In this document: positions 9,980 through 21,318 of the stretch, one piece after another
Position numbering within the stretch: the stretch's first letter is position 1
How the letters are laid out: every line of letters starts with the position of its first letter
Source: a virus
Taxonomy: Duplodnaviria > Heunggongvirae > Uroviricota > Caudoviricetes
Reading direction: 5' to 3' (one strand)
DNA: 21,468 nucleotides
IMG/VR virus record: IMGVR_UViG_3300029058_000046
Translations under genes and position numbers: made by a program
Notes under the pieces: model-generated
The model's database searches: none
Told to the model about the DNA's origin: nothing
Seen by the model: the letters and a program-made list of their open reading frames with translations, nothing else

Positions 9980-11320
9980 ATGACCGAACTTTGCCATACA
10001 GGACGCGGGCTGTCCGAAGAGTTTGATGAAGATTTCCAGAACAGACTGACGGCATATTTTTGTCGTGATCACGAGTTTCTTACTCGTGCGGGAGATCTGG
10101 TTGTGCCTAGCCAATTTGCCAATGCGGCCAATGCCATATTGGTTAATATGGTTTCGGGCTATTACCGTATGTACAAGAGCGCGCCTTCTTCATCTGCGAT
10201 TCTGGATATGCTTAAGCGTGCGAAACGCGATAAGACCATCCGTGAGGAACTCTTCCCGGATGTTGTTGCTGCGTTTAAGCGCATCCTTGCAGAAAAATTG
10301 TCTGATACCTCGTACATGGTTGACCAGGTATCCACATTCGCAAAAAGTGTAGCGTTTGATGATGCTCTGATTAAAGCTGCTGAACTGAAAGAGAAGGGCG
10401 ACTTTCAGGGGGCGATGGCAATCATGGCCAAGGTTCAGCAGATAGGCTCGAACGAAGCGACCGGAATCTATGACTACTACACCTCCGCAAGTGAGCGATT
10501 GAAAGCGCGTGAATATGAGGCTTCAGAGGAGTATGTGCCAAACAGCATTACAACTGGACTCCCTCTGCTTGATAGATTGCTGTACCAAAAAGGCTGGGCA
10601 AAGCGCGAAATGGTGCTCTTCATGGGTTTTGCTAAATCCGGTAAATCGACCGCAATGGGTGAGTTTTCCATAAACGCTACGCTTGCTGGCTACAATGTTC
10701 TGTATCTCTCGCTGGAGGTTCACACCACCATTTTGTCCGACCGTTTTGATGCAAGATTGTCGGAGACGGAAATGTCCAAGCTGGTGGAACGGCGCGATGA
10801 AGTTCATCGCAAGTTGGCAGAGTTGGGAGCCACGAAGGGGATTGGTAGTTTGTGGGTTGTTGAGCGTCCGTCAGGAAGTATGTCACCGGCAGATCTGGAC
10901 CGTATGCTTAACAGTATGAAAGCCAATGGCATGGTGCCTGACATGGTTGTTGTCGACTACGCAGATTTGATGCGTGCCAGTTATGACCTTCGTGATGATC
11001 GCGCCAACATTCGTAGTATCTACACCGATTTACGTGCTCTTTATGACAAGCATAACGTTGCTGGTATCACGGCGTCGCAAACAAACCGTGAAGGTGGCGC
11101 GTCAGAAGTTGCCACAATGATGCACGCTGCCGACAACATCGAAAAAGTACGTATTGCTGACCTGGTAATAACGATCAACAAAACCGAAGAAGAAGAAGCG
11201 AAAGGAGAGGCTCGTCTCTACTTTGCTGGTTCGCGTAACCAGCAGGGAGGGATCAGCATTCGCGTTAAACAAAACCTCGAACAAATGCGCTTCATTGAGC
11301 GAATCTTAGACGTTACCTAA
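9980..11320 (+). CDS. DnaB-family replicative DNA helicase
   Basis: Walker A GFAKSGKST, SLE motif (LYLSLEV), Walker B-like VVVDYADLM and SQTNRE motif, in the order typical of DnaB/T7 gp4-type RecA-fold helicases. AAGGA RBS upstream. Confidence 0.85.
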   Translation: MTELCHTGRGLSEEFDEDFQNRLTAYFCRDHEFLTRAGDLVVPSQFANAANAILVNMVSGYYRMYKSAPSSSAILDMLKRAKRDKTIREELFPDVVAAFKRILAEKLSDTSYMVDQVSTFAKSVAFDDALIKAAELKEKGDFQGAMAIMAKVQQIGSNEATGIYDYYTSASERLKAREYEASEEYVPNSITTGLPLLDRLLYQKGWAKREMVLFMGFAKSGKSTAMGEFSINATLAGYNVLYLSLEVHTTILSDRFDARLSETEMSKLVERRDEVHRKLAELGATKGIGSLWVVERPSGSMSPADLDRMLNSMKANGMVPDMVVVDYADLMRASYDLRDDRANIRSIYTDLRALYDKHNVAGITASQTNREGGASEVATMMHAADNIEKVRIADLVITINKTEEEEAKGEARLYFAGSRNQQGGISIRVKQNLEQMRFIERILDVT

Positions 11321-11327
11321 AAAATAA

Positions 11328-11348
11328 GCGTGGAGAACACCTCCACGC
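11328..11348 (+). other. Perfect 8-bp hairpin (gcgtggag-aacac-ctccacgc) between the helicase stop and the primase gene
   Basis: Inverted repeat read directly. It contains the GTG that the ORF track uses as the primase start (11330), so that start is unlikely to be real. No U-tract. Confidence 0.35.
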
Positions 11349-11401
11349 TTGATTCATTGGTGAAACAACTTTTCTTTTGCCAAACCACAAAAGAAAAACA
11401 C

Positions 11402-12583
11402 ATGAGCCTTTATGTTATATCAACATTTAGGTTGGTCACAATATTGCCTGTTAAAAGTGGAATTATCGTGAGCGAGCTGAAAGAGCTAATTACCGAATTA
11501 GATTTTGAACAATGGTTGGATACTGAAGGTATCGTTTATCGACGTGGAGGCGTGAGTACTCGCGGTCGTGAAGTGAATATCAAGGAGTGTCCGGTATGCG
11601 GCAGCTCCAACTGGAAGGTATATTTCAATCTGACCAGTGGCGTCGGTAAATGCTTCGCTGGTGATCATCCCGAAGAGATTCAGTTCAATAAGCTGGTCTT
11701 CCTCAAGCACTACAGCGGTAAATCACGACGACAGTTCGAGGAATATGTGCAGAACGCTCTTCTTTCCCAGGGGTGGGCACCAAAGAAAGAAGAGATAGTG
11801 CTTGCAAGCACAGTCGAGTTAGAGGGACCAGTTGCACTCCCTCGTCATTACGATCTTCCTATAGATGGCCATCTTCCAGACTATCTGGTTGAACGAAATA
11901 TATCGCCTGAAATGGCAAAGTATTTTGACCTACGATACTGCGTCGAAGGCAAGCACGCTTATGTAGATCCGTATACAGATCAGGTTAAAGGACAGATTTT
12001 CGATATGCGAATACTGATACCGGTTTACGATCTGGATGGGGTAATGAAGACATTTCAAGGACGAGACATTACCGGTACAGCAGAACGCCGCTACCTCTTT
12101 CCTATGCAGCTTCCAGCTTCAGGTAAGTTTCTCTACAACGGCCACAATGCAGTCGGCAAACAGACTGTAGTTGTCTGTGAGGGGGCGTTCGATGTTATGG
12201 GGGTCAAACGAGCTATTTTTGACGAAGAAACATTACGCGATTACGTGGAACCAATAGGAACGTTCGGGATGCATCTATCTGGTAACACCACTCAGGATGC
12301 AGAAGATCAGTTGGGCGCGTTCCTGACGCTCAAGGCGCGTGGATTACGTAATGTGATCATGATGTGGGATAGTGAAAAGCAAGCTATACGAAACACTATG
12401 GCCGCAGCCAGGCGACTGACCAGTATCGGTCTTAATGTGAAAATTGCATGTTTGGGCGAGGAAGGACTCGACCCCGGCGATGCGACCCCGGGGCAGATTA
12501 TCAAAGCCTACTATTGCGCAAAACCTTACTCACGACAGCTTGAACTTTTAAGCAAGGTAAAAGGCATAGCAGCATTAGTTTGA
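11402..12583 (+). CDS. DNA primase (zinc-ribbon plus TOPRIM domain)
   Basis: Zinc-binding motif CPVCGSS...GKCFAGDH and TOPRIM-like acidic motifs (VVVCEGAFDVMGV, EEGLDPGD). Start uncertain: ATG 11402 or GTG 11468; 11330 sits inside a hairpin. Confidence 0.75.
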   Translation: MSLYVISTFRLVTILPVKSGIIVSELKELITELDFEQWLDTEGIVYRRGGVSTRGREVNIKECPVCGSSNWKVYFNLTSGVGKCFAGDHPEEIQFNKLVFLKHYSGKSRRQFEEYVQNALLSQGWAPKKEEIVLASTVELEGPVALPRHYDLPIDGHLPDYLVERNISPEMAKYFDLRYCVEGKHAYVDPYTDQVKGQIFDMRILIPVYDLDGVMKTFQGRDITGTAERRYLFPMQLPASGKFLYNGHNAVGKQTVVVCEGAFDVMGVKRAIFDEETLRDYVEPIGTFGMHLSGNTTQDAEDQLGAFLTLKARGLRNVIMMWDSEKQAIRNTMAAARRLTSIGLNVKIACLGEEGLDPGDATPGQIIKAYYCAKPYSRQLELLSKVKGIAALV

Positions 12584-13720
12584 ACCAGTATTAGTCACGT
12601 ACACATTGACCGAAAATGATTTAACTTCTGTGTTGAAGTTGTCAGTCATTACCGCGAGGTAGGCATTCTTGGTATCTCTGAATTGCTTCAGTATGATTTG
12701 AACGTTATCGGTGCAAACAAACGAGGTAGCCAGATTGCCTCCTTTCTCTGAAAAATCCTTCAGGAAGGTGCAGTCAACTTTGCCATCATTAGCGGTGAAG
12801 GTAGCATCATCACCCTGCCAGGTAAATGTAGCGTTAACGCCCTTATCAATGGATTTAGCAATAAGTCGCTGGGTGGCGGATTTTGTTTTGGCTTTGGAAG
12901 CCGGCGCTCGATATTTGCCGCTTTCTTTCAGTTCTGCAATGTAATCACAGCCATTTTTATCTTCTTTATCACAAGCAGCCTGATAAAGCTCAGCTGCTTT
13001 TTTATAGTCTTTTTTAACCCCTTCACCATACTCATACATAATGCCAAGATTTGTCATGGCATCGGCGTTTCCGAGTTCAGCAGCTTTTTTATACCACTTA
13101 ATTGCTTCGGCATCGTTGCGTTTAACACCTAAACCGTCATCGTATAAGGTGCCTAATGCGAACATGCCATCTGAACTACCTTGATCCGCCGCTTTTTTGT
13201 AATAAGTAAAAGCTTTTTTATAACTCTTTTGTACACCTTTACCATATTGGTAATACGCACCAAGAAGGTAGCTAGCTTTAACATACCCGGCATCAGAGGC
13301 TAGTTTGAAGTATTTAATGGCGAGCGCATGATCTACTTTACCAAGCATCCCCTTTTGATAAATAGCACCAAGATTGTTATAGGCTCTACCTTCACGAGCA
13401 TCTCCCGCAAGTTTGTAGTACTCAACTGCTTTATTTAAGTCTTTATCTACACCCTCGCCAAATGTGTACATAACCCCAAGTGCATAATATGCTACTTTGT
13501 CTCCCTTTTCTGCAGCGAGATCAATCCACTTCTTGGCCTCAACTACATCCTTATCAAAACCATTGATACCATCAAAATAATTTGTCCCTAACTCACTTTG
13601 TGCTGCGGTATCCCCTGCGGTAGCGGCTTCTATCAGCGTTTGTTTATTGTCTGCGTTAACGAATCCAGAGCTAAAAAGCAAAGTTAATGCCAGCAACGAT
13701 GAAGATTTTATGTATTTCAT
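12575..13720 (-). CDS. Secreted Sel1-like repeat protein with a ~130-aa non-repeat Cys-containing C-terminal domain
   Basis: Sec signal peptide MKYIKSSSLLALTLLFSSGFVNA/DN, then at least six ~36-aa repeats of the form A..YY..G.MY..GEGV.KD..KA..WYKKAA typical of Sel1 repeats. 3' end overlaps the primase 3' end by 9 bp. Start taken at the ATG for MKYIK; the track's TTG at 13765 is less likely. Confidence 0.75.
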   Translation of the reverse strand: MKYIKSSSLLALTLLFSSGFVNADNKQTLIEAATAGDTAAQSELGTNYFDGINGFDKDVVEAKKWIDLAAEKGDKVAYYALGVMYTFGEGVDKDLNKAVEYYKLAGDAREGRAYNNLGAIYQKGMLGKVDHALAIKYFKLASDAGYVKASYLLGAYYQYGKGVQKSYKKAFTYYKKAADQGSSDGMFALGTLYDDGLGVKRNDAEAIKWYKKAAELGNADAMTNLGIMYEYGEGVKKDYKKAAELYQAACDKEDKNGCDYIAELKESGKYRAPASKAKTKSATQRLIAKSIDKGVNATFTWQGDDATFTANDGKVDCTFLKDFSEKGGNLATSFVCTDNVQIILKQFRDTKNAYLAVMTDNFNTEVKSFSVNVYVTNTGSN

Positions 13721-13953
13721 ATTTTTTGTTCTGTTGATATAGGATGAACAGTTTAGACGCGGCAAGTGTCAAGTGTGCGAAAAATGGTACTTAAATTTAG
13801 TTAATATGTCAGCTTTGTTGATTTAGTTTATGGTCGGTAAAGTTACTAGGAAACTAATAACCATAAGAAATAGTACGCCATTTAATTATTGTGGCACTGC
13901 TCGTGTTTTGATTAACTAATACCTGCGATAAATATAAATAAAGGGAAGCCAAC

Positions 13954-17500: not shown

Positions 17501-17649
17501 TTCCATACATCTCATTAGCTTTTATGGGTGGCTTCCTTATCGGCTTCGGCATCTGTCGTGACTTAATTAAGCAGGAACTTAAAACCAAAACACTGTGCAT
17601 CGGAAAGCGTGTGTATCGGGTAGTTCATGAAACAAAGGTGAGAAAATGA
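17497..17649 (+). CDS. Small membrane protein (50 aa), paralog of the ORF at 17122-17301
   Basis: ATGA start/stop overlap with the upstream ORF. Shares AF..GF.IG, C.D.IK and G(K/R)R(V/I)YR(V/I)V.ET motifs with the 59-aa ORF. Confidence 0.4.
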   Translation: MIPYISLAFMGGFLIGFGICRDLIKQELKTKTLCIGKRVYRVVHETKVRK

Positions 17650-17936
17650 GCAATTTAACTTCTTGGGAATGGTGGTTGGCAACCTATTTTATGGCAGCCG
17701 GAGTCGCATTCGCTTTTTACGTAGGGCAGTTAGTCGTAAAACTGCTGCTGATTAAATTTGCTAGCCATAAACGTATTGATGATGGCCTGTGGCGTCTTGG
17801 TACCCTTGTGGAAACTCGCTACGGGCAACTTAATGAGAACGAAACCATTACTATCCAAGCGAAACGATTCACTGCCACCATCACAAGAACACCTGATCGT
17901 AGAGTGGCCTTGATCAAAAAAGTCACAACCGAATAA
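17646..17936 (+). CDS. Membrane protein (96 aa)
   Basis: ATGA overlap with the upstream ORF, AGGTGA RBS, N-terminal TM helix (WWLATYFMAAGVAFAFYVGQLVV). Confidence 0.45.
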   Translation: MSNLTSWEWWLATYFMAAGVAFAFYVGQLVVKLLLIKFASHKRIDDGLWRLGTLVETRYGQLNENETITIQAKRFTATITRTPDRRVALIKKVTTE

Positions 17937-18140
17937 AAACATTTCGATAAGTATTTACTTACCTATCTTTTATGTATAAGATGACTTTGTTTTCGTTGAG
18001 ACGCGACTGTTTGAACTTAAATACAAGTGCAAACGAAGAAGTCTATCTGGCAGTAGCCTAATAAGCCAAACACCAGCGAGGTCAGTTTCCAGCCTCGTTA
18101 CCGAAATGGGACACACTGAGCGAGTGTGATTGCAGAACGC

Positions 18141-18164
18141 AGGAGGGAACATTCATGTTCCCTC
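18141..18164. other. 24-nt palindrome GGAGGGAACATTCATGTTCCCTCC; a Shine-Dalgarno-like GGAGGG paired to its complement around an ATG
   Basis: Perfect 11-bp arms read directly. The ATG in the loop opens only a 6-codon ORF (MFPPMK). Confidence 0.4.
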
Positions 18165-18172
18165 CGATGAAG

Positions 18173-18247
18173 TAACAGAATGGGCGGTTGGTATATTTTC
18201 AACTCCATATGACTCCCGGATTCTTAGCCACTGACCGCCCATCCTGT
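18173..18247. other. Long hairpin D: 15-bp stem (aacagaatgggcggt / accgcccatcctgtt, one mismatch) with ~45-nt loop
   Basis: Inverted repeat read directly, in an ORF-free region upstream of the tRNA cluster. Confidence 0.4.
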
Positions 18248-18326
18248 TACGTCATTTTGTTCAATTATGTCGTTTATACTGGGTTAAAAAGCGGCGACGT
18301 AGCCCGGCTGGTATGGTTAGCCAGCA

Positions 18327-18448
18327 CACAACGTTGAGGCCATTACATTTTTATCAATTCTAAGGTTCTATTCACAGAGATACCGGCGAGCGTTGATATG
18401 TAACATGTTGGGCAAACATTCAATCGGAGTAGTGGCCTCAACGTTGTG
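18327..18448. repeat. Hairpin element A: ~20-bp stem (CACAACGTTGAGGCCATTAC / GTAGTGGCCTCAACGTTGTG) around an ~82-nt loop
   Basis: Arms complementary at 18 of 20 positions. Terminal CACAAC...GTTGTG frame shared with hairpins B and C. Confidence 0.45.
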
Positions 18449-18718
18449 AAGACGGGATTGTTGTGTAGGTTTAACCACTGTTGCCATTGGTGCCTGTTTT
18501 CACAACAAATGATTCCATACATCACATTGTATAAATTACAAAGTAGGTGCTGTCCTCAGAAACATCATCTACTTAAAGATTTTGCCTTCTACTATTGAGC
18601 GAAGTCGAAAGCGTCTGGCACTAACGAAAAAAAAGTGCAAGTAGCGGTGCGTTTCCTGGCAGAAACTAAACCGTCGCGATTGGCACTGTTGAGTAATAAA
18701 TACTGGCAGTGCTGAATT

Positions 18719-18793
18719 GATGGTGTAGCTCAGCGGTAGATCAGTTGGCTGTTAACCAACTGGTCGGTGGTTCGAATCCACCCACCATCGCCA
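18719..18793 (+). tRNA. tRNA-Asn (anticodon GUU), CCA encoded
   Basis: Manual fold: acceptor gatggtg/caccatc, anticodon stem gttgg/ccaac with loop CTGTTAA, T-arm ggtgg-ttcgaat-ccacc, discriminator G, CCA. The D-stem has one mismatch. Confidence 0.75.
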
Positions 18794-18798
18794 ATTTA

Positions 18799-18885
18799 GG
18801 GGAGTTAGTCCGTAGAGGTAGCGGTGTAGACTGTAAATCTACTGTCATGGCGACTCGGGTGGTTCGACTCCATCACTCCCCACCA
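18799..18885 (+). tRNA. tRNA-Tyr (anticodon GUA), class II with long variable arm, CCA encoded
   Basis: Acceptor ggggagt/actcccc, anticodon stem-loop gtaga-CTGTAAA-tctac, ~15-nt variable arm, T-loop ttcgact, CCA. Starts 5 nt after tRNA-Asn. Confidence 0.8.
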
Positions 18886-18889
18886 AATT

Positions 18890-18965
18890 GCCGGTTTAGC
18901 TCAGTTGGTAGAGCAGTCGCTTTGTAAGCGAATGGCCAGCGGTTCAAGTCCGTTAACCGGCACCA
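18890..18965 (+). tRNA. tRNA-Thr (anticodon UGU), CCA encoded
   Basis: Canonical D-arm tagctcagttggtagagc, anticodon loop TTTGTAA, T-arm agcgg-ttcaagt-ccgtt, acceptor gccggtt/aaccggc, CCA. Starts 4 nt after tRNA-Tyr. Confidence 0.85.
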
Positions 18966-18966
18966 A

Positions 18967-19055
18967 CACAACAGGTAAGAGCATTGGGCGAATCGGCGAT
19001 ACTGACCCACAAGGCCGTAAATCGATAGAGTCAGACCAGTGCTCTTACCGTTGTG
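18967..19055. repeat. Hairpin element B: ~20-bp stem (CACAACAGGTAAGAGCATTGG / CCAGTGCTCTTACCGTTGTG) around a ~48-nt loop, starting 2 nt after tRNA-Thr
   Basis: Arms complementary with one bulge and one G-T pair. 3' arm shares CTTACCGTTGTG with hairpin C. Confidence 0.45.
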
Positions 19056-19106
19056 AGGAAGTGCAGCTCTTTGAAGCAACCAGAAGATAAGCATCTGGCT
19101 TCACAA

Positions 19107-19185
19107 CACAACGATAAGATCATTACGGTTAATCGTCGTTCATGTGCACAATGACTGGTCGAAAGGTAGTGATCTTACCGTTGTG
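19107..19185. repeat. Hairpin element C: ~20-bp stem (CACAACGATAAGATCATTAC / GTAGTGATCTTACCGTTGTG) around a ~39-nt loop
   Basis: Arms complementary with two non-Watson-Crick positions. Clearly a paralog of hairpin B. Confidence 0.45.
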
Positions 19186-19386
19186 ATGAATGCACAGGCT
19201 GATGTGCCGCAACTACAGTAGTGCGCGCTTTGCGGGGCTTGCTACAACCCTGTGTCGGAGTTCAGCACCGACCATCACAATAGCTGGAGAGTAGGGAGCA
19301 TGGTGCTCAAGCGGTCTTGAAAACCGTCCCATTGCGCAAGCGATGATGGTTCGATTTGAAGTGGTCAACAAAAACTGGCCACCGAG

Positions 19387-20534
<1,148 letters not shown>

Positions 20535-20606
20535 TATGGCACCTGTGTTGTTCTGAGGTGAGCATATCACCTCTGTTCAGGTGGCCAAATTCAGTAAACC
20601 ACTTCA

Positions 20607-21318
20607 CACAAAAGAAATTGCGGCAATGCTCAATGGATACATAGACGAGGGCAAGGCGGCGTCAGCCAAGTTAATCAGATCAACACTGAGCGATGCATTC
20701 CGAGAGGCAATAGCTGAAGGCCATATAACAACAAACCCTGTCGCTGCCACTCGCGCAGCAAAATCAGAGGTAAGGAGATCAAGACTTACGGCTGACGAAT
20801 ACCTGAAAATTTATCAAGCAGCAGAATCATCACCATGTTGGCTCAGACTTGCAATGGAACTGGCTGTTGTTACCGGGCAACGAGTTGGTGATTTATGCGA
20901 AATGAAGTGGTCTGATATCGTAGATGGATATCTTTATGTCGAGCAAAGCAAAACAGGCGTAAAAATTGCCATCCCAACAGTATTGCATGTTGATGCTCTC
21001 GGAATATCAATGAAGGAAACACTTGATAAATGCAAAGAGATTCTTGGCGGAGAAACCATAATTGCATCTACTCGTCGCGAACCGCTTTCATCCGGCACAG
21101 TATCAAGGTATTTTATGCGCGCACGAAAAGCATCAGGTCTTTCCTTCGAAGGGGATCCGCCTACCTTTCACGAGTTGCGCAGTTTGTCTGCAAGACTCTA
21201 TGAGAAGCAGATAAGCGATAAGTTTGCTCAACATCTTCTCGGGCATAAGTCGGACACCATGGCATCACAGTATCGTGATGACAGAGGCAGGGAGTGGGAC
21301 AAAATTGAAATCAAATAA
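20607..21318 (+). pseudogene. int: 3' fragment of a lambda-type tyrosine integrase gene (about residues 111-356), cut off at its 5' end by IS911
   Basis: Translation from TKEIAAMLNGYIDEGKAASAK to ...HKSDTMASQYRDDRGREWDKIEIK matches the recalled phage lambda Int C-terminus, including the catalytic tyrosine region. The track's ORF start at 20581 lies inside the IS911 terminal repeat. Confidence 0.9.

Follow-up and report, generated by a model that had tools for sequence, protein, structure and literature searches.

A family of RNA stems of about 20 bp, phased to tRNA ends and shared by lambda-, P1- and SSU5-type phages

Why should a phage surround its tRNA genes with long hairpins whose stems are related and whose loops have diverged? 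The question is posed by 21,468 nucleotides of viral DNA (IMG/VR record IMGVR_UViG_3300029058_000046; this whole stretch is called the window in what follows), in which four long hairpins, named D, A, B and C in their order along the DNA, flank three tRNA genes between positions 18,141 and 19,185. A preliminary description of the region proposed a duplicated family of structured RNAs and offered three roles for it: phage small RNAs, processing sites for a tRNA precursor, or recombination sites. The hairpins are indeed members of a family, an unannotated one of RNA stems of about 20 bp that also occurs in phages lambda and P1. Among the three roles, the processing of a tRNA precursor is the best fit, given that the hairpins abut tRNA 3' ends and that no promoter or terminator is predicted around them. 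In our judgement the chances are about even that the hairpins are RNase III processing stems, which would free tRNAs and intervening RNA modules from unterminated polycistronic transcripts, and whose arms would also serve as recombination joints.

All four hairpins are read on the + strand. Hairpin D (18167-18255), of an AGTAAC...GTTACG subtype, has 22-nt arms that are 91% complementary (-36.5 kcal/mol, z -5.4); 22-26 positions are paired, 1×1 mismatches occur at two conserved places, and the loop measures about 37-45 nt. Hairpin A (18327-18448), of the CAACGUUG subtype, has 20-nt arms that are 95% complementary and an 82-nt loop (-47.8 kcal/mol, z -6.7). Hairpin B (18967-19055) consists of 6 bp, a bulged A at 18973 and then 14 bp (-39.4 kcal/mol, z -6.1); its stem, CACAAC-A-GGUAAGAGCAUUGG / CCAGUGCUCUUACC-GUUGUG, is the commonest subtype of the family. 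Hairpin C (19107-19185) has one A×C mismatch and a 39-nt loop (-32.2 kcal/mol, z -4.6), and it differs from B by compensatory changes (AAGAUC/GAUCUU in C, AAGAGC/GCUCUU in B). An inverted-repeat search recovered the arms of A, C (as 19104-19188) and D, with lengths of 20-23 nt and complementarity of 87-95%, and the two-part stem of B. When each unit was folded as + strand RNA, none of 200 shuffles folded as well as the hairpins, with z scores from -4.6 to -6.7.

The positions first proposed for A, B and C hold, and hairpin D exists as had been claimed, with an extent that replaces the earlier 18173-18247. The repeated ends that had been pointed out can be read directly from the sequence: A, B and C all have CACAAC at the 5' end and GTTGTG at the 3' end, followed by AAG, AGG or ATG, and B and C have CTTACCGTTGTG in common. 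Each GUUGUG can also pair with the next CACAA(C/U), which gives a chain of alternating inverted repeats. One such weaker alternative stem (18443-18506, + strand) pairs the GTTGTG end of the 3' arm of hairpin A (GTTGTGAAGACGGG) with the downstream CCTGTTTTCACAAC, at 86% complementarity; its fold is not better than that of shuffles.

How far does the family extend beyond this region? We searched with a covariance model, R1, built on 35 distinct stem types. Across the whole 21.5-kb window, R1 finds exactly D, A, B and C on the sense strand, at 48-54 bits (50.3 for A, 50.1 for B, 53.9 for C, and 47.9 for D on the + strand vs 29.4 on the - strand). In 0.94 Mb of collected loci it finds 376 matches at E ≤ 1e-6, typically 3-5 per locus. 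Wherever the two strands were compared, the model scores higher on the sense than on the antisense one. The genomes of P1, P7, D6 and SSU5-like phages contain 3-5 copies each, and SJ46 and Klebsiella phage-plasmids carry several. The homologous region of P1 is the leader of the C1-controlled ban operon, with at least four units. Phage lambda has one unit (44,787-44,862), located in the late leader between Q and S, seven bases past the U-run of tR'. The Qin prophage of E. coli K-12 has two, one between cspB and essQ and the other about 120 nt upstream of dicF; no members were found by the model search in the DLP12 and Rac prophages. In a 47-kb phage unrelated to P1 or SSU5, a promoter, two hairpins, a tRNA-Met and a terminator follow one another in that order. 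A simple search pattern for subtype B, CAAC-GGTAAG...CTTACCGTTG, recovers more than 120 IMG/VR contigs among the matches listed, in which one stem carries many unrelated loops. The claim of a duplicated structured-RNA family is therefore borne out by both kinds of search, and far more widely than the window.

Nevertheless, the family is absent from Rfam and from the literature that was searched. Scans with Rfam 15 at permissive E values (up to 1-5) of the window, P1, P7, D6, pECOH89, pJN2-26 and lambda assigned no family to any hairpin, and the sole overlaps were chance-level matches of miRNA-precursor models on the long stems. Full-text literature searches for the stem sequence and for features of the P1 ban leader found nothing. 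BLAST with a single hairpin does not recover the arms, only the loop module in Klebsiella phages. Nor do the copies behave as mobile repeats of the MITE or REP type: they are confined to one noncoding island per phage, show no flanking direct repeats, and are in phase with the ends of tRNAs. As a kind of element, hairpins punctuating the polycistronic RNA of phages are known; undescribed in Rfam and in the literature searched are this conserved family, its fixed geometry, its tight phasing to tRNA ends and its function as a joint for exchange among lambda-, P1- and SSU5-type phages.

Which part of the hairpin is under selection? In an in-register alignment of the 35 distinct types, 92.7% of cells are standard pairs, vs 35-50% when the partners are slid, although this paired percentage is partly built in because the units were gathered with a hairpin finder; the covariation and the strand asymmetry are not built in. 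Double-sided changes occur at 17 of the 22 pairs (124 cells), and no shuffle out of 500 reaches any of the observed measures. The changes between subtypes include AAGAGC/GCUCUU, AAGAUC/GAUCUU, GAGGCC/GGCCUC and GAGCGG/CCGCUC. The compensatory changes that the preliminary description had named as a check are found in this alignment. The helix is perfect or nearly so in each unit, with a stem length of 19-21 bp (20±1), whereas loops range from about 25 to 82 nt, and pairing is kept through column 26-27 of the 22-column helix.

The two halves of the stem evolve differently. The lower half is conserved in sequence, as NNNAAC[A]G..AAG / CUU..C-GUUNNN, with pairs 4-6 being A-U (35/35), A-U (33/35) and C-G (32/35), the next pair G-C (30/35), and A-U and G-C at pairs 11-12; covariation is free in the upper half. 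The core of subtypes A and E, CAACGUUG, is its own complement, which makes this part of the duplex exactly two-fold symmetric; in subtype B the dyad is occupied by a bulged A. A resemblance to boxA of UGCUCUUA in the 3' arm of subtype B was considered and dropped, as this segment co-varies and is not retained in other subtypes.

The structure also has a strand. With units oriented by the nearest tRNA, there are 61 G·U pairs on the tRNA strand vs 18 A·C cells, which correspond to G·U on the opposite strand, and one position has U·G wobble as its most frequent state. The units are co-oriented with the tRNAs, with the lambda late operon and with the Qin operons. The G·U asymmetry, together with the higher sense scores, argues that selection acts on the structure in the tRNA-bearing RNA, or at least in that single strand. 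Among orthologues of A and D from E. coli, Salmonella and Klebsiella elements, the stems are almost invariant and the loops have accumulated substitutions and indels, with no consensus structure in the apical loops of these orthologues; this is the pattern of related stems and diverged loops that had been proposed. As far as comparison of sequences can tell, it is the stem and not the loop that is selected.

If the stem is what matters, could it merely be the protective closing helix of a stable small RNA that acts in trans, as a tRNA-like decoy for defence nucleases or modification enzymes, or as a Y-RNA-like scaffold? Phage tRNAs are suspected counter-defence genes, and the hairpins lie among them; several P1-group loops have T-arm-like hairpins, e.g. 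GGGTTCGAATCCC and GGGTTCATATCCC, and one loop is like an anticodon-less tRNA with acceptor-like, D-like and T arms. It is difficult, though, to reconcile a trans-acting RNA with orthologous loops that evolve fast, acquire indels and lack a consensus apical structure, or with a single stem that carries unrelated loops. None of the four window hairpins has a T-arm in its loop, and the Rfam models for YrlA, Y RNA and tRNA match no hairpin. We regard this explanation as distinctly unlikely, and its tRNA-like or Y-RNA version was dropped, since T-arm-like loops occur only in some P1-group copies and the YrlA model matches only real tRNAs. The P1 case is worth describing in itself. Hairpin 2 of P1 (L001 1606-1692), like the IMG/VR loci L019 and L081, has a loop with a canonical T-arm hairpin (GTAGAG-TTCGACT-CTCTAC, AGGG-TTCGAAT-CCCT); the P1 loop, which combines a 7-bp acceptor-like top with a D-like arm and a T arm and lacks an anticodon arm, resembles a tRNA remnant or mimic within a family stem.

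The position of the hairpins with respect to tRNAs is the second constraint on any explanation. Hairpin B begins at 18967, one base past the CCA of tRNA-Thr, which ends at 18965, in agreement with the adjacency first reported. This placement is general: among 97 distinct units that have a co-oriented tRNA within 2 kb, 75 have a tRNA upstream, and in 45 of these 75 the hairpin starts at -5 to +3 nt from the 3' end of that tRNA. A tRNA lies immediately downstream of the hairpin in only 2 of 72 units. The tRNAs involved include Thr, Asn, Ser and others. One might suppose that the hairpins are generic filler, which keeps untranslated RNA folded against Rho loading or blocks 3' exonucleases in the manner of REP elements, with no specific recognition. 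The regions concerned are 1.4-2.6 kb long, untranslated and densely structured, and the one in the window has no predicted terminators, all of which would suit such a function. Filler, however, would explain neither the phasing to tRNA ends nor the near-invariant AAC/GUU and C-G/G-C positions and the fixed 20-bp length across phage families, and a block to 3' exonucleases placed right after the CCA would hinder tRNA maturation. We consider this very unlikely.

A recognized cleavage site accounts for these constraints more readily. E. coli RNase III, to our knowledge the only general endonuclease for double-stranded RNA (dsRNA) in this host, has the perfect two-turn helix as its canonical substrate. 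The enzyme calls for continuous dsRNA of about two turns, at least about 20 bp, and the stems, at 19-21 bp, provide it; the G·U asymmetry (61:18) and the co-orientation suggest that they also lie on the transcribed strand. At sites of double cleavage by RNase III in vivo, the two pairs that lie between the cuts are preferentially G-C or C-G (PMC6212723). The adjacent central pairs of the family, C-G in 32 and G-C in 30 of the 35 types, fit this preference, the cut sites being predicted ones and the bulged A of subtype B lying between the two pairs. Two further observations bear on individual members. First, the lambda member sits in the late leader directly after tR', and the title of Daniels et al. 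1988, as cited in PMC7547250, places RNase III sites in vivo in the lambda late leader, to which the member may correspond. Second, the Qin member at 1,641,158-1,641,229 (NC_000913.3) contains position 1,641,188, where 25 reads were counted in a mutant deleted for rnc and 0 in either replicate of the wild type (PMC5371410 Table S1).

We propose the following pathway. The stems would be transcribed on the tRNA strand, inside long untranslated polycistronic RNAs of temperate enterobacterial phages, and would be recognized and cleaved by host RNase III. The staggered cuts would probably fall within the core CAAC|GUUG, which has dyad symmetry, at the C-G and G-C pairs conserved in its middle. They are predicted 3' of the G in AAC(A)G on the 5' side of the stem and 3' of the leading G of GUUGUG on the other side, and would leave 2-nt 3' overhangs; this corresponds to cuts following 18333/18443 in A, 18974/19050 in B, 19113/19180 in C, about 18177/18246 in D, and 44794/44857 in lambda. 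The tRNA upstream of a stem would thereby be set free, its 3' trailer being short and open to trimming by exonucleases; the upstream mRNA would be separated from the noncoding array; and the loop and inter-hairpin modules would be freed as discrete small RNAs. Since all arms are alike, they could double as recombination joints for tRNA and RNA modules.

Several considerations weigh against RNase III processing, in addition to the built-in part of the paired percentage mentioned above. The evidence for cleavage of family members is indirect. For Qin, it is a single entry of low coverage in a list of roughly 1,900 or more, with a chance of coincidence of about 3%, and the second Qin member has no entry of its own, although it lies less than 400 bp from the dicF-dicB site already known, and sites at such distances were merged by the method. 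In lambda, the tR' hairpin itself is another candidate for the sites of Daniels et al. The bulged A of subtype B, exactly between the central pairs, may alter or block double cleavage. Finally, the sequence conservation of the lower stem exceeds the known needs of RNase III, and another factor may read the stem.

Processing stems of this general sort have precedents. In the E. coli metY-rimP-nusA-infB operon, a long hairpin likewise begins at the CCA end of a tRNA-fMet within a polycistronic transcript, and the rimP-metY spacer figures among the RNase III sites already known. Regnier and Grunberg-Manago (1989) reportedly described cleavage there as releasing the tRNA and initiating degradation of the mRNA that follows. 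The metY hairpin, however, is irregular, with about 28 bp and internal loops, shows no sequence similarity to the family and no match to its model, and belongs to a single host locus, whereas the family is repeated and exchangeable in phages. Long phage transcripts are also punctuated by related stem-loops at the early sites R0.3-R1.3 of T7 and at the N-leader, sib and late-leader sites of lambda; the stems measure about two turns and often have a bulge or internal loop. The T7 sites, though, separate mRNAs rather than tRNAs and have no sequence in common with the family.

Stable non-tRNA RNAs are familiar from phage tRNA clusters, namely the species 1 and 2 RNAs of T4 and the M3 RNA of phi80, an RNase P substrate. 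These are hairpin-like small RNAs that are co-transcribed with phage tRNA precursors and processed from them. Compared by description only, they differ from the family in being cut by RNase P and tRNA-type enzymes and in having CCA-like tails; the family hairpins have no CCA tail. A common neighbourhood links the family to the islands of small RNAs (sRNAs) in prophages, such as DicF, STnc100/PasD, AgvB and 6S/StxS: a Qin member lies just upstream of dicF, and a sub-threshold match to STnc100 follows the fourth P1 hairpin. The title of Faubladier et al. 1990 states that RNase III takes part in DicF maturation. Those RNAs, however, are Hfq-type sRNAs with terminators, and their Rfam models match no family hairpin.

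Some details of this neighbourhood may be recorded here. The degenerate Qin member lies in the dicB operon (L135 19168-19265 and 19383-19435), and in P1 a region resembling dicF precedes the first hairpin by about 170 nt. The sub-threshold STnc100 matches (RF02076; 33-43 bits, gathering score 47) are at L001 2183-2302, L008 2747-2862 and L009 2766-2886; they start at a GTGAATGC flank right after the last hairpin, reach tciA/terB, and are part of a 3' flank conserved among several units. Hairpins, DicF-like RNA, STnc100-like RNA and tRNAs seem to travel together as one noncoding island.

If the arms of all copies are alike, do phages in fact recombine there? Homology breakpoints between related phages coincide with the CACAAC motif, and relatives without a hairpin, for which the preliminary description had suggested looking, do exist. 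In Cyrano, tRNA-Thr-CCA-ACACAAT is joined straight to tRNA-Ser, and tRNA-Tyr, B, C and a cloverleaf-like element between two CACAA(C/T) motifs are missing. In CMS-2020a, tRNA-Thr-CCA-ATACAAC is joined to hairpin C, with the 5' arms of B and C fused. A 65-nt module, AATTAAGCGAATRCCGGAAGCAGAACCGGATCACCAAATGCGTACAGGCGTCATCGCCGCCCAGC, is identical at 64 of 65 positions between lambda (L132 2580-2645) and P7 (L008 2662-2727); in P7 it lies within a hairpin loop, and in lambda it lies downstream of the hairpin, where it is closed by GUUGUGCUG/CAGCACAAC. The 3' end of this module, ...GGATCACCA, recalls that of a tRNA. Similarly, the loop sequence of hairpin B is found in Klebsiella phage-plasmids upstream of tRNA-Asn, outside any stem. 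The recombination role that had been offered is thus visible at the DNA level in Cyrano, CMS-2020a and the lambda/P7 module, and on these sequence comparisons the arms appear to act as joints at which tRNA and RNA modules are swapped between phages.

Perhaps, then, exchange is all that the arms are for: inverted linkers kept because they promote cassette-swapping recombination, with the RNA structure incidental. The Cyrano gap between two CACAA(C/T) motifs, the B/C arm fusion in CMS-2020a, the 65-nt module inside the P7 loop and outside the lambda hairpin, and the B loop sequence outside any stem would all be expected of such DNA-level boundaries. Recombination, however, needs similarity from copy to copy and not complementarity within a copy, yet it is the two arms of each copy that co-vary. 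The arms of different subtypes differ within one genome, and each subtype is conserved across genera; moreover, G·U pairs are 3.4 times commoner on the transcribed strand, and the exact phasing to tRNA CCA ends is left unexplained. On balance a purely DNA-level function is unlikely, and RNase III processing combined with exchange at the arms remains the reading that we prefer.

A more specific DNA-level proposal would be that the hairpins are single-stranded recombination sites bounding tRNA cassettes, like the attC sites of integrons. Such sites are imperfect inverted repeats, 60-140 nt long, in which AAC...GTT is conserved close to the base and the centre varies, and they come and go as cassettes do. 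The family has its near-invariant inner AAC and GTT at the positions of attC R'' (RYYYAAC) and R' (GTTRRRY), unit sizes of 68-122 nt that are within the attC range, an extrahelical base in one subtype, and cassette-like presence and absence. The AAC/GTT resemblance is real, but there are differences. ACACAAC and GTTGTGA each depart from the R-box consensus, by one to two positions; there is no unpaired central spacer, only a single bulged A in one subtype; the cassettes are tRNAs and noncoding RNA rather than ORFs; and the lambda, P1 and Qin members occur without any integron. The strand asymmetry and the tRNA phasing point to RNA. An attC match with intI nearby had been named at the outset as a result that would speak against an RNA family, but the nearby tyrosine recombinases score 22-34 bits against generic XerA/XerC/integrase-domain cutoffs of 220-434, and the ORF at 20581-21318 and the L004 integrase have only generic Phage_integrase domain matches. 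Because there is no IntI, attC identity is rejected, and we think an attC-like function extremely improbable.

How might exchange at the arms relate to cleavage of the stem? One tentative idea, which we doubt more than we believe, is that the island is a phage small-RNA cassette array. An RNase III-cleavable stem and the tRNAs would be its universal punctuation, loop and inter-unit RNA would be freed as discrete small RNAs, and the arms would let lambda, P1 and SSU5 trade tRNA and sRNA cargo by recombination, much like an integron at the RNA level or a polycistronic miRNA cluster. The 65-nt lambda/P7 module and the B-loop module, each 84-98% identical, fit the idea: what is part of a loop in one phage is flanked by punctuation marks in another.

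The noncoding character of these regions has been obscured in some records. P1 (NC_005856) is annotated with plp and upl (125 and 63 aa) across three family hairpins, antisense to tRNA-Thr (L001 1575-2144), and it could be supposed that the region encodes small proteins such as these on the opposite strand. To take Plp as real, one would have to accept a gene antisense to a tRNA whose frame in relatives is stop-broken, split or mostly absent; the annotations of P7, D6 and pECOH89 do not include plp or upl. We give this supposition almost no credence. In lambda, orf-64 (44621-44815; L136 822-1016) overlaps 6S RNA, tR' and the 5' arm of the hairpin. All three, plp, upl and orf-64, look like annotation artefacts.

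The setting of the island in the window may now be described. The window comes from an SSU5-like E. coli phage-plasmid, whose island is 98-99.7% identical to those of pECOH89 and many other plasmids. Upstream, on the + strand, are genes for a DnaB-like helicase (9980-11320), a primase-like protein (11330-12583) and an ATP-dependent DNA ligase; among these replication genes, on the - strand, lies a 396-aa Sel1-repeat protein that consists almost wholly of repeats (12575-13765). Annotated relatives have no coding sequence across the homologous 1.6 kb. Neither a sigma-70 promoter nor an intrinsic terminator is predicted in 17600-19400, so that the island is probably transcribed by read-through from the upstream operon and the tRNAs must be excised from a long transcript. 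The hairpins are not terminators themselves: no terminator-like sites occur in that interval, and their 3' flanks are of the RUGAA type rather than U runs. At the start of the island (17931-18112), and at the corresponding place in P1 (L001 950-1117), the Rfam tmRNA models (permuted, beta) give weak sub-threshold matches (E 0.009-0.26), which recur but are probably due to chance. Just 5' of hairpin D is the near-perfect 24-nt palindrome reported earlier, GGAGGGAACAT-TC-ATGTTCCCTCC (18142-18165), in which GGAGGG pairs with CCCTCC as can be read from the sequence; it has no strand. A GGGAGG motif also lies beside the first hairpin of P1 and of D6.

The three packed tRNAs are confirmed by ARAGORN and Rfam alike. 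All are on the + strand with an encoded CCA: tRNA-Asn(GTT) at 18719-18793 (Rfam tRNA 66 bits), tRNA-Tyr(GTA) at 18799-18885 (41.6 bits) and tRNA-Thr(TGT) at 18890-18965 (69 bits). Beyond hairpin B, a small hairpin at 19072-19103 folds no better than shuffles. A multi-branched, cloverleaf-like element follows hairpin C (19180-19281, + strand), closed by GUUGUGAUG/CAUCACAAU and having its GUUGUG in common with the 3' arm of C. It is 95.5% identical to P1 L001 1908-2019, whereas its flanks are only about 80% identical; ARAGORN makes no tRNA call on it and its fold (z -1.6) is not better than that of shuffles. It may be a decayed tRNA or another exchanged RNA module.

The preliminary description saw no protein gene before the insertion sequence (IS) downstream. 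No conserved ORF is present there, as it claimed, but the stretch from hairpin C to the IS is not empty, because an 85-nt tRNA-Ser(UGA) gene has been cut short there by the IS and its 5' part remains (19285-19356, + strand); homology to a relative, L004, stops at the end of this part. The intact gene is at L004 4382-4466 and is called as tRNA-Ser(tga) in two other relatives, L022 and L017; in relatives it scores slightly under the Rfam threshold for tRNA-Sec. Directly 3' of it, intact relatives have a fifth family hairpin, E (L004 4466-4557), which is not in the window. The absence of both hairpin E and the last 13 nt or so of tRNA-Ser from the window suggests an IS-associated deletion or rearrangement. 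The IS belongs to the IS3 family (19357-20606, - strand), with a left junction set by the end of L004 homology and an approximate right end; its ORFs match Pfam HTH_Tnp_1 (orfA, 20232-20570) and rve (orfB, 19387-20205), and IS911 is a provisional name for it, taken from the preliminary description. The 245-aa ORF directly after it (20581-21318) has a Phage_integrase catalytic domain, apparently without its N-terminal part, and has no DNA similarity to the integrase located about 2 kb downstream of the island in relatives.

What does the family mean for the phages that carry it? An unannotated conserved element appears to be present in lambda and P1, the two most studied temperate coliphages, and in a common family of phage-plasmids of E. 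coli and Klebsiella. With it one can explain how tRNAs could leave phage transcripts that have no terminators, and it supplies specific candidate RNase III sites, with predicted cuts, that can be put to the test. Its recognition removes spurious genes, namely P1 plp and upl and probably lambda orf-64. It also marks the joints where otherwise unrelated phages exchange tRNA and small-RNA modules; should the loops and spacers prove to be set free as functional RNAs, phages would here be packaging and trading their noncoding cargo in a new way.

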